In this document: one piece after another, positions 4,954 through 31,919 of the stretch
Position numbering within the stretch: the first letter of the stretch is position 1
How the letters are laid out: each line of letters opens with the position of its first letter
Assembly: GCA_039208735.1 (NCBI GenBank)
Contig: JBCCQY010000057.1
Coordinates: 1-47,332 of the forward strand
Source: Myxococcota bacterium
GTDB taxonomy: Bacteria; Myxococcota_A; UBA796; GCA-2862545
Direction of reading: 5' to 3'
DNA length: 47,332 nucleotides
Notes under the pieces: generated by a model
Told to the model about the DNA's origin: nothing
Seen by the model: the letters and a program-made list of their open reading frames with translations, nothing else
Databases searched by the model: none
Translations under genes and position numbers: made by a program

Positions 4954-4978
4954 TCCGATCGAGCGAGCCCGCCTGGAA

Positions 4979-5138
4979 TATGCCGGCTCGGTATGCCGAC
5001 CTCCACGTGCACCGAGATGCATCCGAATCACCTCCATGACCTTCGGTGCGCACACCGGACACGCCAGAACCTCCACCAGCACCGCCAGATCGAGCTTCGG
5101 GAGCAGGAAGTCGTAGGTTCGAATCCTGCCACCCCGAC
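4979..5138 (+). repeat. att-like element copy A: ~115-bp conserved arm plus tRNA-Pro(CGG) 3' half (5094-5138)
   Basis: ...GCACCGCCAGATCGA GC TTCGGGA GCAGG AAGTC GTAGG TTCGAAT CCTGC CACCCCG AC: anticodon loop (CGG), 3' anticodon stem, T-arm and 3' acceptor strand; no 5' half. Confidence 0.85.
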
Positions 5139-5510
5139 TCGCATCTTCCGGCGTTGAGCCTGGCTCCTCCGGATATTGGTTGGGCGACGGTTCGGCGGGT
5201 ATGCCGAGTCTGGTATGCCGACTTTGAATATGGTGTTCAACTTGCCAAACTTCCGATGTTTGATCACAGCTCGGGTCGTTTGATGCATCTGAATTTAGCA
5301 ATCGCAAGATCACCCAAGTCCGATGCCTATCGCGGCAGTCGGCATACCGTTCGCCAGACCTTCCATTGGGCTGATCCGTCCTGCCATCTTGCCCTTCGGC
5401 ACTACTGCCTGGTGGCAGGCGCGCGGCCATCGGGACGTGGGCTGGTCTCGCTCGCAACCGCGACGCCGAAGTGTGGGCGAGGCGACGGAGTCCAGGATAA
5501 GCAGTTAGTC

Positions 5511-5738
5511 ATGAGCAAACCCGCCCGCGACCTCACGAACCGCGCCCTCGGCCTTCCTGAGGAGGAACGGCTGGCGCTTGCCGCAGAGCTGATTGACAGC
5601 GTCGAAGGCGCAGCCGACCCTGAGTGGGAAGCGGCGTGGCTCGAGGAACTTGAGCGCCGCAAGACGCACGGAACATCGGACGCCAAGCCGTGGAGCGAGG
5701 TGAGGGCTCGTTTGCTACGACGCTTGAGCGGTTCGTGA
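5511..5738 (+). CDS. Addiction-module antitoxin (TIGR02574-like)
   Basis: ALGLPEEERLALAAELIDSV...EAAWLEELERR...KPWSEVRARL; overlaps the downstream toxin start. Confidence 0.85.
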   Translation: MSKPARDLTNRALGLPEEERLALAAELIDSVEGAADPEWEAAWLEELERRKTHGTSDAKPWSEVRARLLRRLSGS

Positions 5739-6044
5739 CGCTACCCGTCGTCGTTCATGCAGACGCCGAAGACGAGATCACGGAGGCCGCCATCTGGTAC
5801 GAGGCGCGCCGACCGGGCTTCGGGTTGGAGTTCGTCGCGGCCATCGATCGCTCGGTGCTCGAGATCGGCGAGAACCCGAGCAGCTCCAAGCATGGAACCC
5901 ACCTTGGCGACGCGTCGTTCTTCAGGCTTCCCCTTCGTGATCTTCTACGAGATCGAGCAGGATCGCGTCGTCGTGATGGCGGTCGCTCACGCCAGGAGAC
6001 GTCTCGGCTACTGGGTGACACGCCGGCCTCCACCGGTTCCGTGA
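5735..6044 (+). pseudogene. RelE/ParE-family toxin, frameshifted
   Basis: VHADAEDEITEAAIWYEARRPGFGLEFVAAIDR...ENP in one frame and FPFVIFYEIEQDRVVVMAVAHARRRLGYW in another; shift near 5890-5920. Confidence 0.8.
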
Positions 6045-6063
6045 CGACCGCTCTGGTGGCGCC

Positions 6064-6156
6064 TATGACGATCCAGTACGTCAAGCGCGATGTGCATCCA
6101 GGTGCATCCGAATCACTTTCATGACCTTCGGCGCGCACTCCGGACACGCTAGAGCC
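6064..6156 (+). repeat. att-like element copy B (arm only, tRNA core missing)
   Basis: GTGCATCCAGGTGCATCCGAATCACTTTCATGACCTTCGGCGCGCACTCCGGACACGCTAGA matches the arm of copies A and C, then diverges into the abiEi remnant. Confidence 0.75.
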
Positions 6157-6189
6157 TGCGCAGCGCTCCCGCCTCGTGCTCCAGCAGTT

Positions 6190-6590
6190 GACCTCGCCCG
6201 AGGGCCTGAGCGTGCGGGTGACCGTCGTGACCGGCACGTGACCAACCCACGTCCGATCCGAGTCGTCGATGTCCGAATAGTGCAGCCTCACGACGTCGGG
6301 GACCGCAGCCGACGCCGTGACCACGCAGCGGGGACGATCAGGTCGATCTGCGACGGAGGACATCGGACAGGTCGAAGAGCGCCAGCGCAGTCCTCATTCC
6401 GAACACACCTCGGCACGCCGACCACAGCCAGGTCTCCAAGAGCTGCTCGTCATCCGAGGGAGGCCGGCCTCGCTTCAGGTGGTGGAGCAGGAGTTCTGGT
6501 GAGAAACCGAGATCTCCAGCTTGGGCCGTCGTGAAGAGGCCAGCCTGAGTGACCGCCAGCGGGAGGAGCGCGTTTCAGTCGGGTGAAGAT
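6190..6590 (-). pseudogene. AbiEi antitoxin pseudogene (second copy)
   Basis: PD*NALLPLAVTQAGLFTTAQAGDLGFSPELLLHHLKRG...WLWS...TALALFDLSDVL and VRLHYSDIDDSDRTWVGHVPVTTVTRTL; premature TGA, deletion and frameshifts. Confidence 0.75.
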
Positions 6591-6654
6591 CGGCGTCGTT
6601 CAGAACCCACGCGCAAAACCTAAGCCAGGCTTTGGTTCTGCGCAAGACGACCTC

Positions 6655-6750
6655 CGAGGCCAGGAACTCTTCGAAGCGCTCCTCCAGGAACGCCTGACGC
6701 GGATGGTCTTCGCCCTGCCGGGCAACCGAATCGTTCTCCCGCCCGAGATG
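6655..6750 (-). pseudogene. C-terminal remnant of a probable HNH endonuclease
   Basis: GRTIRLPG / EDHPRQAFLEERFEEFLAS; related DNA at ~4120-4155 and 10325-10360. Family assignment is from recall only. Confidence 0.45.
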
Positions 6751-6990
6751 CTTTCCGTCAGCCGAGCGCACGTGAGTCGCGTCGAGAGCGCCACCAACGG
6801 ACCGTCGGCCCGTGTGTTGCGCGCCTGGTATTCCGCCTGCGGCTACACGTTGACCGCCACCGCGGAGAGTGAATCTGACGTCAGCCTCCGCCAGGCCCTG
6901 TACGGAAACGAGCTGGTGGACCGTGGCCGGCCCGTCTGTCTTCCACGTACGCTGTTCACTGACGCGAATCCCTACGTCGCAGGTCCGTTG

Positions 6991-7572
6991 TCAGTCAGCT
7001 GCTGGATCCATGCCGGCGAAGTCGTAGAGCTCGTCGAGGGAAAGAACGATGTCGAGCGACTCCAGTGCGACGTTGCCAGTTGTGATCTCGTGGATGAACC
7101 ATCCTCCCTCGACGCGTCGTCGGACCTCGACTCTCTGCTCGTCCTGGCTGATCAGCACGTACTCCTGGAGGCTGTCGATGCGCCGATAGTGCTGGAACTT
7201 GGTCCCCCGATCATGGCTCTCGGTGTGGGGCGACAGCACCTCGAACAGCACCCTGGGGTTCACCACTGCGTGGTCGTCCTCCGCATCGTAGGCGTAGTGT
7301 CCACAGATCACGGTCAGATCGGCGTAGAAGCTTCCGCCGGTCGCGGGGACCCGAATCTTCTGGTCACTGTCCGCTGCGTGGCAGCCCGACCCCTTCAAGC
7401 GAGGGAATACGGCCCCGAGGAGGTTCGTCTTGATGCGAGCGTGCCTCGGGCTGCCCCCCGACATCGCGTAGGGCACGCCATCGATCAGCTCGTGACGCTC
7501 GCCCGTCTGCTCCTCGAGCGACCGCAGCTCCGAGGGGGTGAGTCGACGTGGCTCTTCGGCGGTCTGGGACAT
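6991..7572 (-). CDS. Uma2-family (DUF820) PD-(D/E)xK endonuclease
   Basis: ERHELIDGVPYAMSGGSPRH...FYADLTVIC...NPRVLFEVLSPHTESHDRGTKFQHYRRIDSLQEYVLISQD. Confidence 0.9.
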   Translation of the reverse strand: MSQTAEEPRRLTPSELRSLEEQTGERHELIDGVPYAMSGGSPRHARIKTNLLGAVFPRLKGSGCHAADSDQKIRVPATGGSFYADLTVICGHYAYDAEDDHAVVNPRVLFEVLSPHTESHDRGTKFQHYRRIDSLQEYVLISQDEQRVEVRRRVEGGWFIHEITTGNVALESLDIVLSLDELYDFAGMDPAAD

Positions 7573-7625
7573 CTGGTCACCTTCCTCGGACATCCTACTG
7601 CCATCAGCAACCGCCGCACAGGGTC

Positions 7626-7787
7626 GGTATGACCGCTCGATATGCCGACTTCGATGTGTATCCAGATGCACCCGAATCACCTCCATGGCCTTCGGCGCGA
7701 ACGCTGGACACGCCAGGACCTCCACTAGCACCGCCAGATCGAGCTTCGGGAGCAGGAAGTCGCAGGTTCGAATCCTGCCACCCCGAC
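7626..7787 (+). repeat. att-like element copy C: arm plus tRNA-Pro(CGG) 3' half (7743-7787)
   Basis: GCACCGCCAGATCGAGCTTCGGGAGCAGGAAGTCGCAGGTTCGAATCCTGCCACCCCGAC; perfect T-stem GCAGG/CCTGC. Confidence 0.85.
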
Positions 7788-8081
7788 GATTAGTTTGGCA
7801 TGCCGACTCTGGCAAAGTCGGCATTCCGGGCAATGCTGTCGAGGGATGTGGCTTAAACCTTGGTTCTTCGATGGCCGAGCGCGTGTCCGGCAGGCAGGCG
7901 TGCGGTCAGCTCCTGGCGCACTCATTGCCACTTGGCATGGTGGCAGGTCATGACTCAGCACGGGATTGAGACGCTGCTCGTCGGTCTCGCGAAGGCGGTT
8001 GTGAGCCACCCCAACCACAGGATTATTCTCCAGCCTCCGGCTAGCTTCGTCCGATCTTCGACGACGATGGGCCAAGGCCTG

Positions 8082-8345
8082 TCACGCTGCCGACGACGAA
8101 GGGGCGTCCCCCTTCACCGCGGGATGGTCCATTGGGCTGCCCAACAGGAGCCTGCCCAGCTCGTCCGATGCGCCCTCGTAGAAGCCGACCTCCACGTCGA
8201 CCGCCTCTGGGTTGGAGAACGTGCCGAAGAGCAGGTCGAAGATCGAGGTGTTGCCAAAGTTGCCGTAATGCACGCCACGTTCGTGATGCATCGTGTGCTG
8301 CTCGGGCCGCATCACGAACCAACCGAGCCAACGCGGCGTCTTCGA
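8082..8345 (-). pseudogene. Sterol desaturase/fatty-acid hydroxylase family C-terminal fragment
   Basis: KTPRWLGWFVMRPEQHTMHHERGVHYGNFGNTSIFDLLFGTF (HxxHH box, DxLFGT); N-terminus missing. Confidence 0.7.
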
Positions 8346-8369
8346 CGAGCGCGTCTTCGCTCCGCTGGG

Positions 8370-8820
8370 GGCTCGAGGTGACCCGATTCGCCGTGCCCGA
8401 CTCCGTGCCCTCCGAACTCGTGGAGGGCTACGTCGACCTGCGCAACGACGGTCGCCTGGTCGAGAGCACGATGTTCAGCGGGTGGGACGTGCACGCCGAC
8501 GGCGGCCTGCTGAGCCGGTCCAGCGATCTGGCGCTGCTGATGCGCGGGGCCAACGACGGATCGCTGCTGTCGGAGGAGCTGACCGACGCGATGCATGTGG
8601 TGCGCGCACCCGACGGCGGACAGGAATTCTTCGACATCGCTTCGGCCTTGGCGTGTTCCGCATCGACACGCCGCAGGGCGTGCGGTGGCATCACAGCGGC
8701 GACGCCATCGGCTACTGGGCCACCGCGCTGGTGCGGGAGTCCGACGGCCTCGCGGTCTCGTGGGGCGTCAACGGCAACTACGGCACGCTCGACGAAGTGC
8801 TGGCGAGCCTGGGCTCCTGA
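8370..8820 (+). pseudogene. Serine hydrolase (beta-lactamase-like) C-terminal fragment
   Basis: ADGGLLSRSSDLALLMRG...LLSEELTDAM, then a frameshift to FGLGVFRIDTPQGVRWHHSGDAIGYW. Confidence 0.6.
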
Positions 8821-8989
8821 CGTGAGACCATCCGGCCCGTGCTGCTCGGAGCCTCGACTCGCACGGCCAGTGCCGGAAGTCCGCACCGAAGGACGCAAAC
8901 GCAGCCCCGACCTCGACAAGACAGGCGTCGACAAGTTTCGAATTCGGATGCGTCGGCTGTGGCGAGCCGGATGTCCGTTCCACCGGGAA

Positions 8990-9090
8990 GAAACGGCTCC
9001 GAGAGGAGATACCAGCACTGGACTGTGCGCGGCGACGAGATGCCGGAGGTGCTCGAACGCGGCGAGGCGAATTGCGAAGTCGGCATCCAC
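8990..9090 (-). pseudogene. N-terminal remnant of a probable HNH endonuclease
   Basis: MDADFAIRLAAFEHLRHL resembles the 'VRLAAFxWL' N-terminus of an HNH family; coding signal is lost after ~30 codons. Confidence 0.45.
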
Positions 9091-9140
9091 CCCTGACTGC
9101 GGGAACTCTGCCTGTGCTAATGCCGGTCCAGTACGCAGCC

Positions 9141-9722
9141 TCAGCGTGGCGGAAGGAGGTCGCTCAACTCGATTCTGCGACCCTCGACCTCGAAACCCTC
9201 GCCGTCGACGAGCAGAGCAACCCGCGAATACTCGGCTGCGTCCTCCCGCGGGGCCGTGAAGACGGTGGCGCGTCGGGCAGGGACGTCCACCTGGCAGTAG
9301 CAGGGCACTCCTGCCGCGGCGTAGATGACCGCCTTGGCGCGATCGAGGGCCTGGCTCGTGACGGAGAGTTCAACCGCGATCACGACGTCTTGCCCCGTTG
9401 GATGGACCTCGAGGAAGTCGGCCGCGGAGCCACGAATGACCGTGCAATCCGGCTCGGGCATGTTGTGTTCGCCGGCCACGATGGGGGAGTGGTCCTGAAC
9501 GTGATGGCCTTCGCTGAACGTCCGCACGAGCGCTTGGTGAACGAGGACGGTCAGACCTCGATGCAAGGGTCCCTGAGGGCTCACGACGATCAGATCTCCA
9601 TCGAGCAGCTCCAGCGGCTCGTCTTCATCGAGTGCACCGGCCTTTACCATCCGCAGTACATCGTCTACGGTGAGTCGGCGCCGCTGGAACGCTGGGTTGT
9701 CCACTCCAACCTCCGCTCTCAT
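9141..9722 (-). CDS. Uma2-family endonuclease
   Basis: RRRLTVDDVLRMVKAGALDEDEPLELLDGDLIVVSPQGPLH...MPEPDCTVI...AVELSVTSQALDRAKAVIYAAAGVPCY. Confidence 0.9.
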   Translation of the reverse strand: MRAEVGVDNPAFQRRRLTVDDVLRMVKAGALDEDEPLELLDGDLIVVSPQGPLHRGLTVLVHQALVRTFSEGHHVQDHSPIVAGEHNMPEPDCTVIRGSAADFLEVHPTGQDVVIAVELSVTSQALDRAKAVIYAAAGVPCYCQVDVPARRATVFTAPREDAAEYSRVALLVDGEGFEVEGRRIELSDLLPPR

Positions 9723-9782
9723 CGTACTCTGGCTGCCGGTAGCCAGCGAGCGACGCTTTATCTTGCGCTCATATGTCCAGTT

Positions 9783-9930
9783 GGTATGACGGCTCTCGTG
9801 TGCTTCCGGATGCATCCGAACCACCTCCGTGGTCTTCGATGCACGCTCCGGACACGCCCGGACCTCTGCCAGCACCGCCAGATCGAGCTTCGGGAGTAGG
9901 AGGTCGTAGGTTCGAATCTGCCATCCCGAC
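9783..9930 (+). repeat. att-like element copy D: arm plus degenerate tRNA-Pro 3' half (9887-9930)
   Basis: GGATGCATCCGAACCACCTCC...CCGGACACGCC...GCACCGCCAGATCGAGCTTCGGGAGTAGGAGGTCGTAGGTTCGAATC-TGCCATCCCGAC. Confidence 0.85.
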
Positions 9931-10393
9931 TCGTTTCATCAGGTCAGCGACCGTGAATCACTCGGCCGGACCACGGTGTGCTTGTTGCACTCAACTACAT
10001 CGCCGTGCATCGCTGCGGAATCCTCGCATCTCGCAGTTGCGGCCAGCCTGGCAGGCAGGAACGTGTCGGGCTACTCACGCTCGCTCTCAACCCCACACCG
10101 CCTGCCGCAAGTGACCACACTGGCAGGTCGGACCCTGGAAATGGGCCGAAAGGTCGCTTGCCGCGTTCGCGATTTCGTCGAGCGACCGCGAAGGCAGGTC
10201 GTTGGCCACTCCGGTATAGGGCCGGGACCACTCGGAGTGCCCCTTCACATCCGCTCGATGGCCGAGCGCAACATCACGCCTTCGACCTCGCGGACCATGC
10301 TCCGCGTCCGCAATGGGTGCGATGCCAGGAACTCCTCGAAGCGCTCCTCCAGGAATGCCCCGCGCACGTTCAGATGGGCACCTTAACGATGCT

Positions 10394-10444
10394 AAAACAA
10401 CGCGTTGTTTTGTCGATCTGATACGATAAACAACGCGTTGTTTT
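10394..10444. promoter_or_regulatory. Tandem perfect palindromes upstream of the ATPase gene
   Basis: AAAACAACGCGTTGTTTT (10394-10411) and AAACAACGCGTTGTTT (10428-10443). Confidence 0.7.
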
Positions 10445-10456
10445 ATTGGAGTGGCG

Positions 10457-11833
10457 ATGAGGCGCAGGTTCGCCGATGTCATGGATGCATGGTTGGCTAG
10501 ATCCGACCGACGACCGCTTGTGCTTCGGGGGGCTCGGCAAGTGGGCAAGACATGGCTCGTGCGCGATCTCGCAGCGCGTTCGGGCCGTCGGCTGGTCGAT
10601 CTCAATCTGGAACAGGATCCGAGCTGGGCACGTGCCTTCGATACGAACGAGGTCAGGGCGTTCCTCTCTGACCTGTCGCTGCGGCTCGGGCATAGAGTGG
10701 ACGCGGGCACCTGCATGCTTTTCCTCGATGAGATCCAGGCGGTTCCTTCGCTGCTCGCCAAGCTCCGGTGGTTGTACGAGGACGCTCCCGACCTGCCGGT
10801 GGTCGCAGCGGGGTCGCTGCTCGAGTTCGTACTGGGCGACCACGCCATGAGCATGCCGGTCGGGCGTGTGAGGTTCGAGAACGTGGAGCCCGTGAGCTTC
10901 GAGGAGTACCTCGGAGCTCACGGGCAGGACGAGCTGGCGGAGCGGATGGTTCGTTGGCGAGCAGGTGCTGCCTGGTCGGCCATTGCGCATGAGCAGGCTA
11001 CCCGATGGTTTGAGAGATACGCCATGATCGGCGGAATGCCCTCAGTGGTCGATGCAGACGTGCACGGCGCCTCGCCCCGGGAATGTCGGCGTCTCCAGGC
11101 CGATCTTGTGGCGACCTACCGGGCGGACTTCGCGAAATACCGAGGTCGACTCGATCGAACGGTGCTGGACGCGGTGCTGCAGAGTGTGGCCCGCTCGGTC
11201 GGTGAGAAGTTTGTCTACGCCCGAGTGGGTGACGGCGTGAAGCAGCCGTCGGCCAGGCTCGCGCTAGAGCGCCTCGCGGAGGCCCGCATCTGCCACATCG
11301 CGCCTCACTCTGCCGCGAATGGGTTGCCGCTCGGCGCCGAGGCCAACCCACGTCATCGCAAGGTCAGTTTGGTCGACGTCGGACTGCTTCATGCGTTGCT
11401 GGGCACCCCCGCCGACGACAGCTTCCCGCCGTCCCACCACCTAAGCGCGGCGATGCGAGGACAGCTCGCGGATCAGTTGGTCGCACAGCAGCTGAGGCTC
11501 ACACAGCCCTCGTTCGGAGGTGGGCCCGAACTCCACCACTGGCGCCGCGGCGGGGGGCGACCCGGGGAGATTGACTTCATCGTCCCGCTGCAGGGTCGCG
11601 TGGTGCCGATCGAAGTCAAGGCCGGGGCGGCAGGAGCGATGAAGAGCCTCCACCGATTCGTGCATGCCAAGGGGCTCCACTTCGCGGTGCGATGCGACGC
11701 GAATCCTCCTTCCGTCCAACGGATTCAGGTGAAGACGACCGAAGGGAATCCCGTAGCCTACGACCTGCTTTCGGTGCCCCTCTACCTGGTGTGGAACCTC
11801 GATTCGATTGTTCGCGACTTGATCAGAGGATGA
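10457..11833 (+). CDS. AAA+ ATPase with DUF4143 domain
   Basis: LVLRGARQVGKT (Walker A), LFLDEIQ (Walker B), AAGSLL, GGMP, DVGLL and C-terminal EIDFIV...PIEVKAG. Confidence 0.9.
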   Translation: MRRRFADVMDAWLARSDRRPLVLRGARQVGKTWLVRDLAARSGRRLVDLNLEQDPSWARAFDTNEVRAFLSDLSLRLGHRVDAGTCMLFLDEIQAVPSLLAKLRWLYEDAPDLPVVAAGSLLEFVLGDHAMSMPVGRVRFENVEPVSFEEYLGAHGQDELAERMVRWRAGAAWSAIAHEQATRWFERYAMIGGMPSVVDADVHGASPRECRRLQADLVATYRADFAKYRGRLDRTVLDAVLQSVARSVGEKFVYARVGDGVKQPSARLALERLAEARICHIAPHSAANGLPLGAEANPRHRKVSLVDVGLLHALLGTPADDSFPPSHHLSAAMRGQLADQLVAQQLRLTQPSFGGGPELHHWRRGGGRPGEIDFIVPLQGRVVPIEVKAGAAGAMKSLHRFVHAKGLHFAVRCDANPPSVQRIQVKTTEGNPVAYDLLSVPLYLVWNLDSIVRDLIRG

Positions 11834-11877
11834 GACCCGTAGGCGCACCGTGGACGCCGGGCATGTCTACGGCGACC

Positions 11878-13089
11878 TCACTGTCGTCCTCGATCAATGT
11901 GTTCCTCCCATGATCGCCCAGCTCGCAGATCCAGAAGCAGGAACCGTGCTCCGAGGTTGTCGCTCGGGTTGAGCCGCAGCATCCGCTCGTACACGTCGAT
12001 CGCGTCATCGAAGCGCTGCTGGCGCCAGAGACACAGGCCGTAGCCGTGAAGGCACCGGTGGAATGGTCGGTTGTCGAGGTGACCCCACAGCAGGACTCCG
12101 TCGAACCCGGGTCCGAGGGTCAGCTCGGCGATGCGGAGTCCGACCTCGTAGTGACCAAGCGCGACTTGGGGGTTGTCGAATTCGAAGTTGCCGAGGTGGG
12201 TGTGGGCGTCCAGGCAGCGGAGGTCTTCGATCAGCATGTCCATCAGAACCCGCCGTCCGGCCTGGTGATCTCCGCTGTCACGCAGTGCGATGGCCCGGAG
12301 GATCGGCCCATCGTCCCATTTACGCGGGTCGTCGCCCGGAGTGATGACTTCCAACTCGAAGCAGGGACGAGGGCCACCCTCCACCAAGGCTTGGGCCCAG
12401 TCCTCGAGTGGATCGTCCTCTTCGCCCCAATCGTGATCGGATGGGTCCCAGGTGCCCATCGGGTTTAAGCGGAGTGGCTCGATGCCCAGGGCCGCAATGT
12501 CGAGTCGCGATGTCGTCACCTCGCCAGATAGGTAGTGGTGGCCAGCCTGTCGCCACTGCTTGTGTCCCTTCACCGTGATGATCTTTCCCGGAACCACGTT
12601 CCAGAGGCTACCGGCGCGAAGAATTAGCGCGTGACCCGAGGCAAGAACGCGACATCGGGCCGCCTTCTGGCGAACGCCGAGTACCACGAGTTCAATCGGG
12701 AGCTGGAGATCGAGTTGGCTCGCATCGACCTTTTGGTGCTTGGCAGCCGGTGGGGCGTCTGCCTCTATGGGCTCGAGTCCGCGCCAAAGGCGATAAGCGT
12801 CGACAACCTTTCGCCCCGTAGAGCTGTCTGGGAAGACGACTGCGGTGAGCTCGACGTCGTACTCGCGACCATCCGGTCGCCGACACCGACCATTCAGCGT
12901 GGGCTGGTTCGCTCCCTGGAGCTCCACAGATACCAGCGATACGGGTTCGCCGATGACGAATACGTTGGCAGGAAGCTCCACCTCGTCCATGAAGGCGATG
13001 TGGAACGCAGAGATTTGCTCGTGGTCATCATACGCGTCCACGATGATGGACGATACGAGCTCAGCGAGGTCTTGGCCAAGGTCGCTCAT
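11878..13089 (-). CDS. Protein with CcbP-like N-terminus and C-terminal TPR
   Basis: IIVDAYDDHEQISAF...; C-terminal DLRCLDAHTHLGN...DNRPFHRCLHGYGLCLW...MLRLNPSDNLGARFLL. Intact ORF. Confidence 0.75.
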   Translation of the reverse strand: MSDLGQDLAELVSSIIVDAYDDHEQISAFHIAFMDEVELPANVFVIGEPVSLVSVELQGANQPTLNGRCRRPDGREYDVELTAVVFPDSSTGRKVVDAYRLWRGLEPIEADAPPAAKHQKVDASQLDLQLPIELVVLGVRQKAARCRVLASGHALILRAGSLWNVVPGKIITVKGHKQWRQAGHHYLSGEVTTSRLDIAALGIEPLRLNPMGTWDPSDHDWGEEDDPLEDWAQALVEGGPRPCFELEVITPGDDPRKWDDGPILRAIALRDSGDHQAGRRVLMDMLIEDLRCLDAHTHLGNFEFDNPQVALGHYEVGLRIAELTLGPGFDGVLLWGHLDNRPFHRCLHGYGLCLWRQQRFDDAIDVYERMLRLNPSDNLGARFLLLDLRAGRSWEEHIDRGRQ

Positions 13090-13174
13090 CAGCTGCTCCC
13101 GCTTGGTTACGAGCAGCGTACAACGCGTCTGTTTGGAAAGCGTTGGGTTCCGGTTGGACCTCGTGTGCACTCAC

Positions 13175-13794
13175 TCACGGCCTCGGGCAACCCAGCTCGT
13201 GTGATGCAATCGCTGGTCGGCGGGCGGTGAGGAGGAATATCGGGTAGCTCCGCTCGTCCCTGGTCACATGGCAGGCCGTGGAGAACCCGATGTCGACGAA
13301 ACCAGCGGCCTGGGCCAGCCCACCGAGGGCGCTGCGGTCGAACCCGTGGTGAAACACCCCTTCGATGTCCGGCGGGTGGAACCGGCCGTCCTCGGCATCG
13401 AGATCCGCCAGAGCCAGGGTGCCGCCCGGGGTCAGATGGGCGAATAGGGTGCGCATCAGCTGGGCCGTGTCGTCCACGTGGTGGGCCGCCATGGCGCTGA
13501 CCACCAGGTCGACCTGGCGGTCCAAGGGGGTGCGCAGCAGGTCTTGGCACACGATCTCGACCCGATCGGACAGGCGCTCGAGCATAGCCGGGGACACGTC
13601 CACGGCCAGGATGGGCCCGACGTAGGAGGCGATCCTGGTGCTGACCAGGCCCGTCCCGGCCCCGAAGTCCATCACCGTGGCGTCAGGAGACAGCACGCCA
13701 GCGCGTTGCAGTGCCGCGAATACCCCATCGGAGATCTGCTGGGCACGGGTCTGTCGTCGTAGTCGGCGGCGCGGTCGCGGAACAGGTCGGTCAT
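13175..13794 (-). pseudogene. Class I SAM-dependent methyltransferase with a 5' frameshift
   Basis: VMDFGAGTGL, AVDVSPAML, SAMAAHHV, EDGRFH...HHGFDR. The natural start MTDLFRDRAADYD (13794) is out of frame by ~1 nt near 13741. Confidence 0.75.
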
Positions 13795-14051
13795 CTTCCC
13801 CTCCAGGTGGCTCGCTGGGGCGTCAATACCATTCCTCAACGGTCCCCGAGGAGGGAAGCTCGGACCTCACCAACCGCGAAGGGTCCGCAGGCCTCCATCG
13901 GAGGCGACCATCCTGACACCATCCAATATGGATGTTTTGAGTTGCGCTCTACGCCATCCTTCTGCCCAGCCTGACTGAAACAAGCCCGAAAGCTGAGCCG
14001 ATGCTCGCGTGCGAGGGCCAAGCGCCCTTGGTTTCATGATGGGAGAGTTTG

Positions 14052-15767
14052 ATGTCTGCGATTCCTGCCGCACTCCATGCCGCATTGCAATTGCTTCCCA
14101 CCCCAGAAGCAGCCGAGGAGTCCGCCCCGACTGAGGCCGTACCCCGCAGTAATTTCCAGCCCGTGGGCAATCCGTTCCTGCAGCGATTCGCCCTTCACCG
14201 CATGCTCGGGGCGTTTGTGGCGGCCACCGGCGTTCTGGAGGCCAAGCGAGGGGCAAGCTACCACGCGTGGCTTCATCGCCTGCGTTTGCTCGATCGCTTG
14301 CCCGGTTCGTGGTCGGTCGAGTCGGTCGTCGACACCTTGCCCGTCATCGGCAGCCGACCGGTGGCGCCGTGCCCAGACCTTCCACCGGGGGTCACTGGTC
14401 CGTGGCCCCAAAGACCGGTCCTCGCCCCTGGACTGTACTCGCCCGTCATGAACCTCTCGCGTGAGGAGGAGCAACGACACCTTTCGTTCAACGTGCTGCG
14501 GTATCTCGGCCAGGCCACTACGACGTTGCCCCGCGCCGTGTGGAAGGCGAGCGCCCGAGCCCGCCTGGCCGAAATGAACGACGTGACGTTCGCGTCGCTG
14601 CTTCAGGACACGACCTACGCGCAGTACATCTGCAAGGGCCTCGACCCCAAGGACCTCCACCCGTTTCGGCACCTGCTTCGACGCCCCGCGAGCGAGTACT
14701 ACAAGGTCGACTTCGAGCTGTTCGCGGAGATGCAGACCATCGACCCCGAGATGCCTCAGACGGGCTCGGTGACCCTTCTCGAACGAGACTCCACGGGCCG
14801 GTTTTGGCCCCTCGCCATCCAACTTGGCGATCGTGTGATCGAGCCGCAGCATGGTCCGGCCTGGGAACTCGCGCGGTACTTCGTCCTGCAGCACGCGGCC
14901 ACCCAGACCGTGGTGGTCTGGCACCCTCGATTGCACTTTCCCTGCGACGCGGTGCATGCCATCACCCTGTCGCTGCTTCCCGACGGCCATCCGATCAAAC
15001 GGCTGATGTTGCCGCACACTCCGCTCACCCTTGGCTTGCACCAGGCCGTGATGCACAACCATCGGTCCGTCTTCCACAACAACCAACGCGAGATCTTCGC
15101 CCCGATGGCCTACACCACGAAGGCCATCCGCGATGCGGCCGCCAAGGGACGCGCTGGCATTGCGGGCAACCGAGGGTACCCGGAGTATCGATGGGGCGAC
15201 GACCTACTCGGAGACCACGTCAGCTACGGGCATTACCGTCGGGAGTGGGCCGCGGCGTTCTTCCGGCTGTGCGAAGGTGCGCTCGCCCAGGTCTCGTCGC
15301 ACGACCGCGCCGTGGCCGCGTGGGCCGATCACATCAGTGCGTTCGTACCCGGCTTCCCCGACTCGTCGGTGATCTTCCAGGGCGACACCCTGGCCCAGGC
15401 GGTGTCGACCTGGATGCGTGGGGTCACCGCGTTCCACACCGCCGATCACTACAGCTACGGCCGAATCCCGATGAAGTGGTCCCCGCTGCGTGTGCGCGCT
15501 CCGCTGCCCCACCCCGACCAAACCGAGCGGGTGCCGGTGGGGCGTCTCGTGTCGCGCGAGGATCGCTTACGCCAGGTGCTGGCTCACGAGCTTTTCTTTC
15601 GCCCAACCGTCATCTACCGCTTGTCCGAGGTGCAGTACGACGTTGAAGGGGGGCGGGCCCAGCATTCGGTCGACCGCTTCTTCGAGGAGGTCGCAGCCAT
15701 CGATGCCGAGTGGTCGACGAGCAGTTTTCCGACTTCGGACCAGATCGGAGCCAGCATTCACTATTGA
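14052..15767 (+). CDS. Lipoxygenase-family protein (atypical metal ligands)
   Basis: WPLAIQL, WELARYF, HPRLH-x17-H-x8-H (LPDGHPIKRLMLPH), FHTADH, C-terminal ASIHY. Confidence 0.75.
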   Translation: MSAIPAALHAALQLLPTPEAAEESAPTEAVPRSNFQPVGNPFLQRFALHRMLGAFVAATGVLEAKRGASYHAWLHRLRLLDRLPGSWSVESVVDTLPVIGSRPVAPCPDLPPGVTGPWPQRPVLAPGLYSPVMNLSREEEQRHLSFNVLRYLGQATTTLPRAVWKASARARLAEMNDVTFASLLQDTTYAQYICKGLDPKDLHPFRHLLRRPASEYYKVDFELFAEMQTIDPEMPQTGSVTLLERDSTGRFWPLAIQLGDRVIEPQHGPAWELARYFVLQHAATQTVVVWHPRLHFPCDAVHAITLSLLPDGHPIKRLMLPHTPLTLGLHQAVMHNHRSVFHNNQREIFAPMAYTTKAIRDAAAKGRAGIAGNRGYPEYRWGDDLLGDHVSYGHYRREWAAAFFRLCEGALAQVSSHDRAVAAWADHISAFVPGFPDSSVIFQGDTLAQAVSTWMRGVTAFHTADHYSYGRIPMKWSPLRVRAPLPHPDQTERVPVGRLVSREDRLRQVLAHELFFRPTVIYRLSEVQYDVEGGRAQHSVDRFFEEVAAIDAEWSTSSFPTSDQIGASIHY

Positions 15768-15948
15768 GCGAGTGTTGCTCGCGCCACGCGCTCCGATGAG
15801 CAGGGCATGCACGCAAGACCCGACCCCGAGGCCTTCTCGTGTTTGCCCCTTATCCTCGCGACCATGGGGTCGGTCGTCCTGCTATTTTCGCTGCTGTGCA
15901 CGGGCGTCGTGACCGTGCTCGGAAGCTCGCTCGCCACTGGCGGTTGAA
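15733..15948 (+). repeat. 216-bp direct repeat, left copy
   Basis: Gapless alignment with 31700-31915; only a handful of substitutions. Confidence 0.95.
15807..15947 (+). CDS. 46-aa single-TM small protein (copy 1)
   Basis: MHARPDPEAFSCLPLILATMGSVVLLFSLLCTGVVTVLGSSLATGG*; differences from copy 2 are synonymous or conservative. Confidence 0.55.
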   Translation: MHARPDPEAFSCLPLILATMGSVVLLFSLLCTGVVTVLGSSLATGG

Positions 15949-16209
15949 TCATCCTTCGGAAGGCCAGCACAAGTCCACCATCGATGAGCGCATGGAACTC
16001 ACCCTATCCTTGCCATCTGCCTCCAAGGTAAGCGGTCGAAACCTGCTCTCGGCGAGCGTGTAGAAACTCGTCGAGCCTGCAGAACAGAGCATCAGGTACC
16101 CACGGTCCCGCAGCCGACGAGGGAGCTGGCTCGTCCCCAGCGTGTCAACTCTGATCACCTGCGCGTTCGCGCATTGTCGATCTTCCTTGTCCTACGCGCT
16201 TACTGGCGG

Positions 16210-18588
16210 GCTTCAGCAGCGTCGAGCCCGAGTCTCGGATTGGACTAAGCGTGCCGACGTTGACGCCGCCCGAAGCGACCTTGCTTCAACGGGGCCGAGC
16301 CCGAGGCTCGGATGGGACCATCGTCGTCGTTGCCGGCAGCGTTCACGGCCTCGTCGCTTCAACGGGGCCGAGCCCGAGGCTCGGATGGGACGCGGCGCAG
16401 GAGGGGTGTAGCCCCACCATCGTCCCAGCTTCAACGGGGCCGAGCACGAGGCTCGGATGGGACGGGGACCCAGGGGATGGGCTGTCGGTTGCGGGGCAAC
16501 GGCTTCAACGGGGCCGAGCACGAGGCTCGGATGGGACGACAGGTTCTCCGTCCCCCCGACAACCGCATCTGGCTTCAACGGGGCCGAGCACGAGGCTCGG
16601 ATGGGACCAATCAATGGGCAACGATGGGGCAACACCCCCATCTGGCTTCAACGGGGCCGAGCCCGAGGCTCGGATGGGACCCCGAGCCGGTGCGCTCGAT
16701 GGCGTAGGGGACCTCGGGGCTTCAACGGGGCCGAGCACGAGGCTCGGATGGGACGGCACTGATGAGCCCATGGCCAGGGCGAAACCAAAGGAGGCTTTAA
16801 CGGGGCCGAGCACGAGGCTCGGATGGGACCGCGCCACTTGCGACGGCCGTTCAACCCTTGTTGAACGCTTCAACGGGGCCGAGCACGAGGCTCGGATGGG
16901 ACAAGTTCTTCTCGAGCCTCATCCACGCGAGGCCGACCCACGCTTCAACGGGGCCGAGCACGAGGCTCGGATGGGACTTGGGTTCAGACACGGCCGCGTA
17001 TTTATCAAGGCCGCTTCAACGGGGCCGAGCACGAGGCTCGGATGGGTCCGCACAAGTCATGGATGCAGCGCGGTGCAGCTGGTGAAGCTTCAACGGGGCC
17101 GAGCCCGAGGCTCGGATGGGACAGTTTCGGACTCTCGCTGGTAGATTGGGGCTTCGTCGAGCTTCAACGGGGCCGAGCACGAGGCTCGGATGGGACCAGT
17201 GGGTCAAAGATGCTCGAGCGCAGCCGCTCACAAGCTTCAACGGGGCCGAGCACGAGGCTCGGATGGGACTTTCGAGTCGCACTAGAAAGTGTTCCGCCAT
17301 TGTGCCGCTTCAACGGGGCCGAGCACGAGGCTCGGATGGGACATACTAGCGTCCCGCTGGGTGCCAGGTCACACACCGCAGCTTCAACGGGGCCGAGCAC
17401 GAGGCTCGGATGGGACCCTGCGCACGGCATACGCTTCATGGCGGGACCAGTTCGCTTCAACGGGGCCGAGCACGAGGCTCGGATGGGACGCCGCATCGGA
17501 AGCGTCCGGGGGGCGACGTCGCCGCCGCTTCAACGGGGCCGAGCACGAGGCTCGGATGGGACCGTCCGAGGGGCTGGACAGAGCCTCAACTGGACCGTGG
17601 CTTCAACGGGGCCGAGCACGAGGCTCGGATGGGACACGATGCGGCTCTCCGAGGGCGAGCGAGATGAGATGGCTTCAACGGGGCCGAGCACGAGGCTCGG
17701 ATGGGACGGCGGGTCGGGCCCCGTTCGACGCGTACTACACCCCCGCTTCAACGGGGCCGAGCACGAGGCTCGGATGGGACGCCAAAATCTTCGCGGATCT
17801 AGGCGTGCAGCAGCATGGAGCTTCAACGGGGCCGAGCACGAGGCTCGGATGGGACGAGTCCCTCAAGGTAAGGAATGGACCCTGACGTCTGCAGGCTTCA
17901 ACGGGGCCGAGCACGAGGCTCGGATGGGACACCTGCGCTCGATCTGCGCAGGCAGCGCGAACGCATCGCTTCAACGGGGCCGAGCACGAGGCTCGGATGG
18001 GACGGCTTCGCCATCGGGCGCCTCCGGCTGCGGCGGCGGCTTCAACGGGGCCGAGCACGAGGCTCGGATGGGACCGCGATCGATGGTGTTGTGGGTGAAG
18101 ACGCCCGCGAGGCTTCAACGGGGCCGAGCACGAGGCTCGGATGGGACCGAGAACCGCCAACGGAAATCGAGCGTTCATTGTCTCTCCAGTGCTTCAACGG
18201 GGCCGAGCACGAGGCTCGGATGGGACGCTGCCAGTCACCCGAGCCTGTCTCATCTTCGAACGCTTCAACGGGGCCGAGCACGAGGCTCGGATGGGACCGC
18301 GGCGTTGGCGGATTCGTACCACCCCTGGGTGGTGCTTCAACGGGGCCGAGCACGAGGCTCGGATGGGACGCTAGCGCACGCATCGTAACAACAGGAGACG
18401 ACATGGAGCTTCAACGGGGCCGAGCACGAGGCTCGGATGGGACCCACGCAGACCCCCAGATGACGCAATTACCGACAGTGGCTTCAACGGGGCCGAGCAC
18501 GAGGCTCGGATGGGACCGATCTGATTGCGGTACAGGGCGCCAGCCCAGGGGGGCTTCAACGGGGCCGAGCACGAGGCTCGGATGGGAC
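16210..18588 (-). CRISPR. Type I-G CRISPR array: 33 repeats (one degenerate terminal copy), 32 spacers
   Basis: 36-bp repeat GCTTCAACGGGGCCGAGCACGAGGCTCGGATGGGAC on + (GTCCC...GTTGAAGC on -), with a CCGAGC/GCTCGG hairpin. Starts counted from 16283 to 18553; degenerate trailer copy at 16210-16245; spacers ~35-43 bp. Confidence 0.98.
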
Positions 18589-18790
18589 AGCGCCCTTGGT
18601 TTTGTGGTTTCAACCTTGATTGAATCCACCTCCTGCGAGAGGTCTCGAAATCTCCTCAAATCTAACCGCCGATCTTCCCTCGAACAGCCCTGAAATATCT
18701 CCGAAATCTAGATTAAACCTATATCGCGAGCGGTCCCAGGGACTTTCGGCGCCACCGGACCGCTCGCACGGATTTCAATGATCGGGAACG
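18589..18790 (-). promoter_or_regulatory. CRISPR leader
   Basis: AT-richer segment between cas2 and the first repeat, with inverted repeat GCGAGCGGTCC...GGACCGCTCGC (18726-18767). The degenerate repeat is at the opposite end of the array. Confidence 0.75.
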
Positions 18791-18795
18791 TGTCG

Positions 18796-19104
18796 TCAGA
18801 CAATTCGTACCACGCGTTCAGGTTCGTCCACCGAAAAGCCAATCGTCCACGCCGACCAAGAGTTCGCGGCGTCGGCTTCGCCGAGCGGCACCAGCAAGAC
18901 TTGGTCGCGAGTTGGATCGATCACCGACTGCAGTTCTTCTTCGAAGGATGCGAGCTGGCGATCGGTGAGTGCGCAGCGAAAGACGGAATACTGGAGATGA
19001 TCGCCAAACGCGCGGCACGCTCGATAAACCCTACGCCAACGAGCCTCAGCGCCTTCGCCGCAAATGTCGTAGCAAACCAAATAGAGTTGGCGTGGTCGAG
19101 TCAT
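18796..19104 (-). CDS. cas2: CRISPR-associated endoribonuclease Cas2
   Basis: LYLVCYDI...RWRRVYRACRAFGDHLQYSVFRC...DQVLLVPLG. Confidence 0.95.
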   Translation of the reverse strand: MTRPRQLYLVCYDICGEGAEARWRRVYRACRAFGDHLQYSVFRCALTDRQLASFEEELQSVIDPTRDQVLLVPLGEADAANSWSAWTIGFSVDEPERVVRIV

Positions 19105-20747
19105 CGAATGCGATACGAAGGGTACGTGGGGATCTCTTCCAGTACCGTCTTGCATAGCAAACGGGCCTGGACTTCCAAGATGCGGCGGTAGGACATGCGA
19201 GTCGCAAATCGTGGATGGGTCGCTTGCTGTGCCATGCGCCTCTCGAAGGCCCGAATGAACGCCTTTCGCCCAGTTGGCAGCAACGTTGTTCCGAGTCGCC
19301 CGACATGAAAATCGTCACGCCCGAGTGTGCCATTGTTCAAGGCTCCAACGACCACGGAGTCAGCAAGTACGGGGCGGAATTCCTCCATGAGGTCAAGGGC
19401 CAGTGCGGGTTTACCAGGACGAGGGCGATGAAGGAATCCCACCCACGCGTCGAGTCCAACCCCGACGAGAGCTGAGGTGACTTCTCGGACCAAGAACGCG
19501 TAGCTTAGGGAGAGCAGTGCATTGACCGGATCCTTCGGCGGACGTCGGTTTCGCCCTTCGAAGTCGAAGCCCTGCTGAATGGCTTCCGACTTCAACATCC
19601 GATCGAAATGCTCGAAATAGCGTCGGGCGGCACGACCCTCCACCCCGTAGAGCTCGTTCAAATTTGAGACACGCAGCGCCCGCTCGGAGAGTTCCCTCAG
19701 CTCCTCCAAGACGTCAGGGTCGACGTACCCTGCGTTTCGTCGCAAGAAGACGCGCTGGTTCGCAACCTTCCCGCTCACGATGCGACCCGCGATCGCCAAT
19801 GACCGCCGCGCATCATTGGCCATCCGATGCTGTGCCATTCGGCCGAGCACATTGTGCCCACTGACTGGTAGAAACGACCCCACCACATGGTTCGACCATC
19901 CGTGGACCGACAGCGGCGTGTCCTGCGCTGCGAGTGCCTGCAGCAATGGCGTGGTCACCGATGCCGCGCCTGTCACGACGACACGCGACGTGTCGCTCAT
20001 GCGCACACGCTCAATTTCCCGTCCGTCGGCCTTCACGACGATTTCCCCACCCGATTTGGCGAGCTTCGCGCCGCGGTGCTCTACGTAAAGCGGCACCCCT
20101 TCATCACGCTTGGGAGCCAGCATTCGAACCCGATCGGTCCGGCCATTGAGCACATTGTGCTCATCAGGAAGGCAGAGCCCGACCAGCGAACAGCCCCAAC
20201 ACTTCGGGCTGTCGATGAGCGGCTCGGGAAGGCGACCTGACGCCACGATGGCTTTGGCCCGCTCAATGGCCTTCCGCGTTTCGGCGATCAACTCGTCCGT
20301 AAATCGAACCTCCACCCTGCGCCGACTCTCGGCAAAGTACAACACGGCATGATCGCAGTGAAAGCCGTTGGCCCGCAACAAGAGCCCCTGCGCACAGACT
20401 TGCACGCGCTCGGGCAGATACGCGTGCTCCGGCACGTCAGGAACGCGGCCCTTCTTGTAGTCGACGGGCACCACGTGTGTGCCGTCGACCTCCAACAGGT
20501 CAAGCTTGCCAACGAGCCCGAGTTCATTGCACCCCAAGGTGACGCTGCGGACTTGTGGAGGCGCGGCTTCGGGAGGTTCCGCTGCGGGCAGAGGCTTGGA
20601 CGAAGGGCGATCCACCCGGCGATGAACGGTTCGACCGCGAATCGTATCTGCCGATTCCGCCCACTCGCCGTTCAGGTGTTCCAGCGCGAATAGTCGAGCA
20701 AAATAGACGACTTCATTGACCATTCGCACCGGAATCGGCTGGCTCAT
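19101..20747 (-). CDS. cas1: Cas4-Cas1 fusion
   Basis: Cas4 part: GKLDLLE, PVDYKKG, QVCAQ, CWGCSLVGLC. Cas1 part: GVEGRAARRYF, RNRRPPKDPVNALLS, GFLH, LALDLMEEFRP. Confidence 0.95.
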   Translation of the reverse strand: MSQPIPVRMVNEVVYFARLFALEHLNGEWAESADTIRGRTVHRRVDRPSSKPLPAAEPPEAAPPQVRSVTLGCNELGLVGKLDLLEVDGTHVVPVDYKKGRVPDVPEHAYLPERVQVCAQGLLLRANGFHCDHAVLYFAESRRRVEVRFTDELIAETRKAIERAKAIVASGRLPEPLIDSPKCWGCSLVGLCLPDEHNVLNGRTDRVRMLAPKRDEGVPLYVEHRGAKLAKSGGEIVVKADGREIERVRMSDTSRVVVTGAASVTTPLLQALAAQDTPLSVHGWSNHVVGSFLPVSGHNVLGRMAQHRMANDARRSLAIAGRIVSGKVANQRVFLRRNAGYVDPDVLEELRELSERALRVSNLNELYGVEGRAARRYFEHFDRMLKSEAIQQGFDFEGRNRRPPKDPVNALLSLSYAFLVREVTSALVGVGLDAWVGFLHRPRPGKPALALDLMEEFRPVLADSVVVGALNNGTLGRDDFHVGRLGTTLLPTGRKAFIRAFERRMAQQATHPRFATRMSYRRILEVQARLLCKTVLEEIPTYPSYRIR

Positions 20748-22240: not shown

Positions 22241-22241
22241 G

Positions 22242-30498: not shown

Positions 30499-30550
30499 CG
30501 CATCCTCCGTACCGTGGTGGTACCGAAGGCCAACGTCCGCGCGCGTCGCG

Positions 30551-31528: not shown

Positions 31529-31699
31529 CGATGAGCCCTCTCGCTTGGTGCTGCAAGGATGTGCAGGAGTTTGCCATCCTTACCAAGCTGGGACCCGCGT
31601 GCTCGGGCCTAGATTCACAGCCCCAACATCTGGACCCCTGCGTCGAAGTCGGGGAAACCGATCGCACCAGGCGAGAACCCGTTGTTGACGAGCCCTCGT

Positions 31700-31915: not shown

Positions 31916-31919
31916 CAAG

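Follow-up and report, generated by a model that had tools for sequence, protein, structure and literature searches.

The window studied here is the complete contig C57 of a Myxococcota bacterium (47,332 nt; assembly GCA_039208735.1, contig JBCCQY010000057.1), one of the 288 contigs of a 9.4-Mb genome bin (own genome, G000). It carries an element of 160 nt in direct copies, in which a conserved arm is joined to the 3' half of tRNA-Pro(CGG). Most likely, these repeats are attachment-site (att) junctions that originate from repeated site-specific integration into the tRNA-Pro(CGG) gene. For the locus as a whole, the probable explanation in our assessment is a stack of integrase-less units, similar to cis-mobilizable elements (CIMEs), that stem from such repeated integration, have partly decayed and were reshuffled by recombination between the att repeats. 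Unusual are the tiny size and large number of the units, the lack of integrase traces and the tight packing of intact toxin-antitoxin (TA), Uma2 or AbiE genes against the arms, as well as the existence of two isoacceptor versions of the element and its reordering between strains.

That the repeats are att-type junctions tied to tRNA-Pro(CGG) had been proposed in an earlier note on this DNA. The proposal is supported by three observations: the tRNA half is preserved at 45/45 positions in the first copy, a single locus is concerned, and repeats resembling arm-type sites lie on both sides of the core.

For comparison, an arm/core query was run against 61 genomes of the same genus, family and order. 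G001 is the second arm-bearing genome and belongs to the same genus, as do G002, G003 and G004, which lack the arm. G013 is a complete single-contig genome of the same family, with an arm sequence unrelated to that of the window. Gene content is based on Pfam profiles, where assignments below the cut-off are marked as such.

Repeat copies and their link to tRNA-Pro(CGG)

The repeat search within the window yields three direct 160-nt copies, i.e., 4979-5138, 7628-7787 (89% to the first) and 9772-9931 (76%). Four copies are found for the arm alone, adding 6064-6157 (78%), and also four for the core alone, adding 32910-32954 (98%). BLASTN against the whole genome gives the same copies, and every copy is located on the + strand. 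Both searches confirm the places given in the earlier note, with two amendments. The third copy exists but starts at about 9772 and not at 9783. The copy at 32910-32959, described as core-only, exists as well but is not purely core, i.e., it retains the last 8 arm bases (GATCGAGC) in common with the other copies. In the following, copies with arm and core are named e1, e2 and e3, next to an arm-only copy and a core-only copy (core4). We denote by P the arm before the core, by O the core (tRNA 3' half) and by P' the arm after the core. The respective features, including sites of an 11-mer discussed below, are:

4979..5093, + strand: P arm of e1, with the exact 11-mer GGTATGCCGAC at 4990
5094..5138, + strand: core O of e1, the tRNA-Pro(CGG) 3' half from 2 nt before the anticodon loop to the acceptor end, 45/45
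5139..5350, + strand: P' arm after e1, with 11-mer sites at 5198 (1 mismatch, +), 5212 (exact, +) and 5338 (exact, -)
6064..6157, + strand: arm-only copy, 78% to e1 over 94 nt, followed by a stretch in which 25/51 aligned core positions are kept
7626..7742, + strand: P arm of e2, 85% to the e1 arm, with the site GATATGCCGAC at 7639
7743..7787, + strand: core O of e2, 44/45 to the tRNA half
7788..7903, + strand: short P' arm after e2, with sites at 7797 (+) and 7817 (-)
9772..9886, + strand: P arm of e3, 79% to the e1 arm, with a degenerate 11-mer (2 mismatches) at 9783
9887..9930, + strand: core O of e3, decayed, 41/45, one base lost
32910..32959, + strand: core-only copy, 42/45 with degenerate acceptor end, with the last 8 arm bases ahead of it and a diverged start of an e1-type P' behind it

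The arm copies differ from each other through 1-nt and 7-nt indels. Given these indels and the lack of a PF00589 match on C57, the arm was rejected as a coding remnant.

ARAGORN reports 57 RNA genes (tRNAs plus one tmRNA) for the whole genome and no tRNA in the window. A single tRNA-Pro(CGG) is among them. This intact gene is found at C65:16-90 on the minus strand, 15 nt from the contig end. The core identities listed above refer to this tRNA, compared from GC+TTCGGGA to the acceptor end, such that the match of the core to the host tRNA-Pro(CGG) holds as originally claimed. Identity between core and tRNA begins 2 nt before the anticodon loop. Furthermore, the first 60 nt of C65 (tRNA 3' part and 15 nt beyond) equal C57:5094-5153 exactly. 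That is, the tRNA 5' half and the e1 arm share the same core and the first bases past the core.

The sequence following the tRNA also differs between arm-bearing and arm-less genomes. In G003 and G004, a terminator hairpin is found downstream of the tRNA, with an encoded CCA in between in the case of G003. In G000 and G001, P' sequence directly follows the tRNA instead of CCA and terminator hairpin, and the P' sequence found after e1 in the window also follows the intact tRNA of G001 (97% over 130 nt). The tRNA 3' flank in both genomes is thus, as far as the sequence tells, element-derived. Upstream of the tRNA, G000 and G001 show syntenic core genes (ribulose-phosphate epimerase, GDPD, aldehyde dehydrogenase, periplasmic binding protein) and no recombinase among them. 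A tyrosine integrase adjacent to the intact tRNA-Pro(CGG), for which the earlier note had suggested a search, was not found on this side, and none could be tied to the sites (see below).

Read depth provides a second view on the tRNA-side copy. In the best-holding Logan run, a 60-nt unitig composed of C65:1-51 plus 9 more bases has a depth of 17.2, compared to 8.08 for the flanking C65 contig and 6.7-8.8 for the C57 pieces; the next C57 unitig begins at 5133. This depth reads as a doubling of the core plus 24 nt of P', with one copy behind the tRNA and the other behind e1, which diverge at window position 5163. No other contig of the bin carries the continuation of the tRNA-side P' copy. The tRNA-proximal unit is thus missing from the bin, which is also the place where an integrase would be expected.

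Pairs of tRNA-Pro(CGG) 3' halves, 0.13-4.3 kb apart, are also observed in other genera of the family and order. Respective locations are G007:C9:26838-27085, G005:C64:5749-5915, G037:C5:2089-2343, G053:C128:6469-9227 and G055:C54:27259-31633. Short units at tRNA-Pro(CGG) may hence be common in the group.

Next to the core, the 11-mer GGTATGCCGAC marks the arms. It has 4 exact copies in the 9.4-Mb genome, three of which are placed within 360 nt of e1 and flank its core on both sides, at 4990 (+), 5212 (+) and 5338 (-). With at most one mismatch, the window holds 8 sites, 7 of them between 4990 and 7827. G001 contains 10 exact copies, 8 on array contigs, and 0 of the reversed control, while the arm-less genomes G002, G003 and G004 show a background level of 1, 1 and 0 exact copies. 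Regarding their arrangement, the one or two sites of a P arm precede the core by about 100 nt. In a full P', a pair of direct sites at +60 and +74 is joined by inverted ones at around +190 to +203. As a group, the P' arms are mosaic and end in a conserved tail; likeness to the G001 contigs C140 and C187 stops at 7903, and a joint seen in other metagenome runs (X3/X4, see below) is at 7901. Arm, core and P' together span about 300-450 nt. This layout resembles a lambda-type attP with putative arm-type sites.

Arm copies of the own genome are found only at C57:4979-9931, i.e., all within 5 kb. In the genome comparison, 56/61 genomes match the query via the tRNA part alone, and arm-bearing matches are restricted to 2/61, namely G000 and G001. 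The latter provides eight, on C140 (2), C187, C131, C97 (2) and C225 (2). A 29-nt match in G048 (E 9.8e-4) was taken as chance. When scanning a collection of 185,579 species genomes with the degenerate 30-nt arm pattern GRTGCAYCCGRAYCAMYTYSRTGRYCTTCG, only G001 contigs match, and the same pattern has 0 matches in metagenome contigs and 0 in viral contigs, such that no integrase-bearing relative was found this way. Two further patterns gave chance or unrelated matches: the junction pattern TCGAGCTTCGGGAGYAGGARGTCG hits two metagenome sequences, both response-regulator-like coding by eye (no family scan), and the double-site P' pattern hits three viral loci, all short coding repeats with 15-nt and 12-nt periods.

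This distribution bears on the idea that the arm is a dispersed repeat of the miniature inverted-repeat transposable element (MITE) or repetitive extragenic palindromic (REP) type that sits here by chance. It is a short non-coding repeat in several copies, as would be expected for such elements. Its copies in the own genome share one contig and one orientation within 5 kb, no inverted repeats were found in the window by the repeat search, and beyond G000 it is seen only in G001. The family is thus restricted to genus and locus and is not a MITE or REP, and we consider a chance placement extremely unlikely. The scattering across the genome that would have spoken against the original proposal is absent in BLASTN, in the 61 genomes and in the pattern scan.

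The arm also occurs with a second tRNA. On G001 C97, two copies combine a homologous arm (74-77% to that of e1, and 82% between the two) with a tRNA-Pro(UGG) 3' half, where the core is 98% identical over 51 nt to the tRNA-Pro(UGG) of the own genome (G000). To judge from these alignments, we see one arm family in two versions fitted to two proline isoacceptors.

Cargo units, strain variation and integrase search

Every arm of the array is close to a TA or nuclease gene, as the earlier note had pointed out, with gaps of 20-54 nt. In detail, 26 nt separate the VapC stop (4953) from the e1 arm (4979), 20 nt the stop of a ParE-like toxin (6044) from the arm-only copy (6064), 33-54 nt a Uma2 start (7572 or 7593) from the e2 arm (7626), and 50 nt a second Uma2 start (9722) from the e3 arm (9772). 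That is, arms are faced by two gene stops and two gene starts, and cargo orientation is not constant. The genes concerned, and the further content of the units, are:

4286-4549, + strand: VapB-like ribbon-helix-helix antitoxin, weak FitA-like match below cut-off
4471-4953 (open reading frame, ORF), + strand: PIN-domain VapC (Pfam), the cargo abutting e1
5511-5738, + strand: antitoxin, Unstab_antitox (Pfam)
to 6044, + strand: ParE-like toxin, split across two frames; C-terminal piece 5757-6044 (ParE_toxin E 5.6e-4, below cut-off)
6991..7593, - strand: Uma2-family nuclease gene 1, start at 7572 or 7593, facing e2
8082..8315, - strand: C-terminal fragment of fatty-acid-hydroxylase type (profile positions 103-132 of 132, below cut-off)
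9141..9722, - strand: Uma2-family nuclease gene 2, start faces e3
9931..32909, no strand assigned: stretch from e3 to the core-only copy with AAA_14/DUF4143 ATPase, TPR, methyltransferase, an array of clustered regularly interspaced short palindromic repeats (CRISPR) with cas genes, DUF4423 and WYL regulator; no integrase

Measured from core to core, the units have lengths of 2649 nt (e1-e2), 2143 nt (e2-e3) and 23,029 nt (e3 to core-only copy); those in G001 range from 0.7 to about 3.6 kb. The e1-e2 unit also holds a weak helix-turn-helix (HTH) fragment, and the e2-e3 unit combines the hydroxylase fragment and other broken reading frames with the second Uma2 gene. Overall, the units hold P', P arms and cargo only, i.e., VapBC, ParDE, Uma2 or AbiEii genes. 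As in CIMEs, integration and transfer genes are absent from the units and att-type sites are present on both sides.

In G001, contig C140 shows the order Uma2, arm, VapBC, arm. ParE followed by an arm is found on C187, AbiEii between two Pro(UGG)-type copies 1.1 kb apart on C97, and two Uma2 genes on C225. The copy on C131 is followed by genes for an ATPase, a reverse transcriptase, an HTH_17 protein and a TIR protein. Within this locus (L024, 617-3904), AAA ATPase, RVT_1 and HTH_17 (excisionase-type fold) come right after arm and core, with FGE-sulfatase and TIR next. These genes are possibly a defence system with a directionality factor.

The arrangement of arms and genes was also considered for a different role, namely that arm plus half-tRNA form a structured, tRNA-like non-coding RNA gene that acts on the toxin or nuclease genes next to it through regulation or processing. 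A compact element, always near a gene end and with local inverted repeats (GTGCAT..ATGCAT and CCGAA..TTCGG), would suit such an RNA, which we nevertheless hold to be very unlikely. Rfam gives 0 matches at E<=1 over 4700-10300. For an RNAalifold consensus of 6 copies, the covariation term contributes -0.19 of -29.04 kcal/mol, and only 5/41 pairs show two-sided changes, two of which are T-arm pairs that differ between tRNA species while the other three rest on single sequences. In addition, the gene orientation relative to the arm varies, as just described.

For the preferred stack of CIME-like units, the following course of events would account for the array. A lambda-type tyrosine integrase with an arm-binding domain would cross over in the anticodon loop and thereby create the junctions. 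Each junction would then consist of an element-side P arm, an O given by the tRNA 3' half that was displaced by a new integration, and the P' of the next unit. The att-flanked, integrase-less units would be remnants or non-autonomous members of one element family. Recombination between att repeats, either site-specific or homologous, would later cause loss, gain and reordering of units, and TA cargo would favor the retention of the smallest ones.

Successive insertion at the tRNA, which displaces older units, predicts a decay gradient, and such a gradient is observed. Along the array, core identity is 45, 44, 41 and 42 of 45, and the 11-mer sites are exact in e1, with one mismatch in e2 and two mismatches in e3. 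A toxin of the second unit is frameshifted, and the third unit contains gene fragments.

Next, we compare the unit order between strains. Positions 6310-7331 of G001 C140 correspond to window 6907-7903 (Uma2-e2-core-P', 89%), and 70 nt further, 7403-8328 correspond to window 4185-5113 (VapBC-e1, 94%). VapBC-e1 precedes Uma2-e2 in the window and follows it in C140, i.e., the order is reversed. On C225, the first 58 nt of an e2-type arm are joined to window 9138-9758. Additional joints stem from Logan contigs of three other metagenome runs (X2, X3, X4), placed at 90% likeness, where uncovered parts of the stretch carry no information. These are 7901->4224 (X3, X4), 5125->36 other letters->9137 (X2, X4), 5223->7851 (X4) and 3925->6991 (X3). 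For a further joint, 9133->10395 (X3, X4), the letters between are not known, and it is thus not read as a clean deletion. Coming from other strains, the X2-X4 joints are leads each; 7901->4224 agrees with the G001 assembly. By this comparison, units, or cargo attached to conserved arms, are apparently exchanged between strains. Unit content is hence not invariant, neither in G001 nor in the other metagenome runs, in line with the original proposal.

Variable order and compact units would also be expected from an active tRNA-anchored cassette platform. Here, non-autonomous cassettes of 0.9-2.6 kb would carry a full lambda-type att site (P-O-P' when circular) on the tRNA-Pro 3' half, and an integrase acting in trans, e.g., from the unassembled tRNA-proximal unit, would capture, excise and reshuffle them at tRNA-Pro(CGG)/(UGG), resulting in an integron-like store of TA and defence genes. 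We regard this as rather unlikely, although it finds support in several observations. The distance from cargo ORF to P arm is 12-54 nt in 5/6 cases, the same P' precedes different cargo, and the same P arm family follows different cargo. A complete 1.1-kb unit O-P'-VapBC-P-O is present in G001 and in X3/X4 contigs, and the AbiEii unit between two Pro(UGG)-type copies provides a second one of 1.1 kb. Unit order varies between genomes, no unit contains integrase remnants, and the bin lacks the array part closest to the tRNA. Against active cassettes stand the decay gradient in cores and sites, the frameshifted ParE and the gene fragments, the breakpoints outside the core and the core variant that travels with the P arm (both described next), the confinement of the arm family to one genus, and the fact that no integrase is linked to the array. 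Neither an excision product nor a circular or empty-site junction turned up in the contigs covered here.

Some observations weigh against the preferred stack of site-specifically integrated units. First, strain breakpoints are located in P', both at its outer edge (7901-7903) and in its interior (5223), within the P arm (7684) and at cargo edges (4185, 6991, 9137), and none is found in the anticodon loop or core among G001 and the X2-X4 contigs. Second, a single core polymorphism (T to C, T stem) accompanies P arms of the e2 type, in the window as well as in the first C140 copy (C140a), though the P' behind it differs. Its tie to the P arm runs counter to what an anticodon-loop crossover predicts, and breakpoints and polymorphism together fit homologous exchange at least as well as such a crossover. 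Third, the 11-mer signal is confined to exact and near-exact clustered copies, since at up to 2 mismatches the window has 17 sites compared to a shuffle mean of 14.3 (29/100 shuffles reach 17), and binding of a protein to the 11-mer is something we infer from the attP-like layout. Fourth, the intact tRNA-Pro(CGG) and the array are on separate contigs, and a join of C57 to the tRNA contig is absent from the assembly; both G000 and G001 are metagenome bins with about 6% contamination each. Finally, PF00589 reveals neither an integrase nor a remnant on C57 (8 matches in G000) or on the six G001 array contigs (14 matches in G001), which include C140, C187, C131, C97 and C225, and among the candidates checked in G000 and G001, none could be tied to the array sites. 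The lack of remnants on array contigs also counts against pure decay, which would predict some.

Homologous recombination is central to another explanation, i.e., one old site-specific event followed by segmental duplication, where recombination between the 160-450-nt repeats accounts for gains, losses and reordering. Breakpoints inside arms and at arm edges, the mosaic P' arms and the link between core polymorphism and P arm are all in agreement with it, as are other local duplications in the window (repeat families D3/D5, D7, D11, D14). We still consider it improbable. The arms differ by 15-22% compared to 0-9% for the cores, which fits separate elements that brought their own arms, each core having presumably once been part of a working tRNA. 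This arm also comes with a Pro(UGG) half, P' is found right at the intact tRNA, and arm-type sites are present on both sides of the core.

Concerning the earlier claim that units were stacked by an integrase acting in trans, the junctions and the shuffled order thus stand, while the integrase part stays hypothetical: no integrase is linked, breakpoints fall outside the core and decay is progressive. Its statement that the window lacks both integrase and intact tRNA agrees with PF00589 and ARAGORN.

The following integrases were examined as candidates. The one on C110 next to tRNA-Pro(UGG) was rejected for its different P' and its flanks without arm and 11-mer. It belongs to an 11-kb island (C110:1-11021) with tRNA-Pro(UGG), tyrosine integrase, HTH, family-A DNA polymerase, ResIII helicase, AAA ATPase and subtilase, which ends in a tRNA fragment at the contig start and possibly continues on C267. 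On C287, a 58% paralogue of the C110 integrase is cut by the end of the 3.2-kb contig, beside an insertion-sequence-type transposase gene (DDE_3), and was rejected as well. The same holds for the C223 integrase, which belongs to the tRNA-Thr it adjoins, and for those of C107/C153, a multi-copy family at contig ends that is common to G001 C103/C121. For an integrase of the G013 type, neither G000 nor G001 yields a match at E<=1e-5. What is left is a lone tyrosine integrase at C23:44599-45831, directly after alternative complex III genes, whose sole close relative among 41 genomes searched is found in G001 (81%, with an in-frame TAA there). This orphan is a weak lead for the array, with nothing that ties it to the sites.

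Further genes and repeats of the window

The stretch between e3 and the core-only copy contains a CRISPR-cas region (16263-27899) with 32 repeats that share a conserved 36-nt core. Genes beside the array are cas2, a cas4-cas1 fusion, Cas_GSU0053, a large ORF without assignment and cas3 with a C-terminal HD domain, a gene set we take to be type I-G (formerly I-U). The CRISPR-cas block is bracketed by 219-nt direct repeats (95%) at 15730-15948 and 31697-31915, i.e., 15,967 nt apart, each including a small hydrophobic ORF (MGSVVLLFSLLCTG...). Possibly, the cas block was inserted as a module of its own.

Two palindromic AAACAACGCGTTGTTTT boxes at 10396-10445, just upstream of the AAA_14/DUF4143 ATPase gene, are operator-like in look. 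Short repeats at 3964-4046 / 6503-6585 (84%) and 6655-6694 / 10320-10359 (93%) link the regions upstream of VapBC, the HTH-Uma2 pair and the ATPase gene and are signs of mosaic rearrangement within units. At the contig start, window 5-710 is an 86-87% paralogue of 12385-13089, which is part of a TPR gene of 430 amino acids (11878-13170), and thus provides a second local duplication. At the other end, 123-nt tandem repeats (95%) at 46943-47332 within a TIR-TPR gene are the likely cause of the contig break.

Relation to known systems and meaning

We compared the array with known systems of stacked or recombinase-less units. The earlier note had set it apart as a cassette-capture system distinct from attC integrons; taken as a kind of its own, this was overstated, given that both CIMEs and tycheposons are already in print.

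According to the available part of PMC5704250 (citing Pavlovic 2004, Bellanger 2011), integrated elements decay to CIMEs, which keep attL and attR and are without integration and transfer genes. The array resembles CIMEs, as far as that part of PMC5704250 describes them, in its probable tandem accretion at tRNA or gene 3' ends, for which complex excision and reshuffling are expected. In contrast to CIMEs, the units of the window are far smaller (2.1-2.6 kb, and down to 0.7 kb in G001) and usually comprise one or two genes. Many of them are in a row without an integrase remnant, and no partner integrative and conjugative element (ICE) or integrative and mobilizable element (IME) was found.

Tycheposons and their degenerate remnants populate tRNA-anchored islands of Prochlorococcus, where, in the accessible portion of bioRxiv 10.1101/2020.12.28.424599, newer insertions push older ones inward and more partial tRNAs are found scattered. 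On that description, both systems have tandem elements separated by partial-tRNA repeats. The host group is a different one, however, and the window units lack an integrase or replication module of the tycheposon type. Furthermore, the element-side arm of the window is conserved across units and carries a repeated 11-mer.

Within the same family, G013 serves as a positive control. Besides its tRNA-Pro(CGG) gene, it contains two displaced 3' halves at spacings of 100 kb and 33 kb. Either half is led by a conserved P arm of about 100 nt, and a conserved downstream stretch follows the tRNA and both halves. Paired direct repeats of the TGTGCAGCA type are located after the tRNA and the first half, with related repeats in the P arm, and the distance between a core and a tyrosine integrase gene is about 0.6 kb in one case and about 5 kb in another. 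These islands thus share with the array the target tRNA, the identity from the anticodon loop on and the arm architecture. They differ in that they are 33 and 100 kb long and have a tyrosine integrase each, compared to window units that are 10-50 times smaller; arm sequence and repeat motif (TGTGCAGCA type) are unrelated to those of the window.

Integron cassette arrays consist of small, mostly one-gene, recombinase-less and TA-rich units and are served by IntI, attI and attC hairpins. The array is similar insofar as it is a TA-rich row of small recombinase-less units in one orientation, each ending in a recombination site. Unlike in integrons, PF00589 shows no IntI on C57, there is no attI, and core genes are located upstream of the tRNA. 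Hairpins of the attC type are lacking as well, i.e., the window contains 0 inverted repeats and the consensus fold has no supported arm hairpin. The sites of the window are long, double-stranded and of the attP type on a tRNA half, and cargo genes face both ways.

Further modules without recombinase are known from plasmids. Their pdif sites are 28-bp Xer sites served by the host XerCD. In Acinetobacter plasmids, the available sections of PMC6449649 and PMC13141974 describe pdif modules that are small, often of TA type and recombinase-less, located between tyrosine-recombinase sites and shuffled between replicons. As described there, they provide a functioning parallel, namely modules that lack a recombinase and are served in trans. 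The sites of the window differ in being arm-bearing, 300-450 bp long and tied to a chromosomal tRNA gene.

That is, tRNA-anchored stacks are known as such, while integrase-free units of such small size are unusual. The pair of Pro(CGG) and Pro(UGG) arm versions is a natural case for how an integrase family switches its tRNA target. Provided that the units are no more than scars, the locus documents the filling of a tRNA hot spot with defence and addiction genes and shows what survives decay, i.e., att arms plus TA genes. Units that are still mobile would represent the smallest class of integrase-dependent, tRNA-targeted cargo elements known so far and, beside integrons and Xer modules, a second route for keeping and shuffling single-gene defence cassettes.

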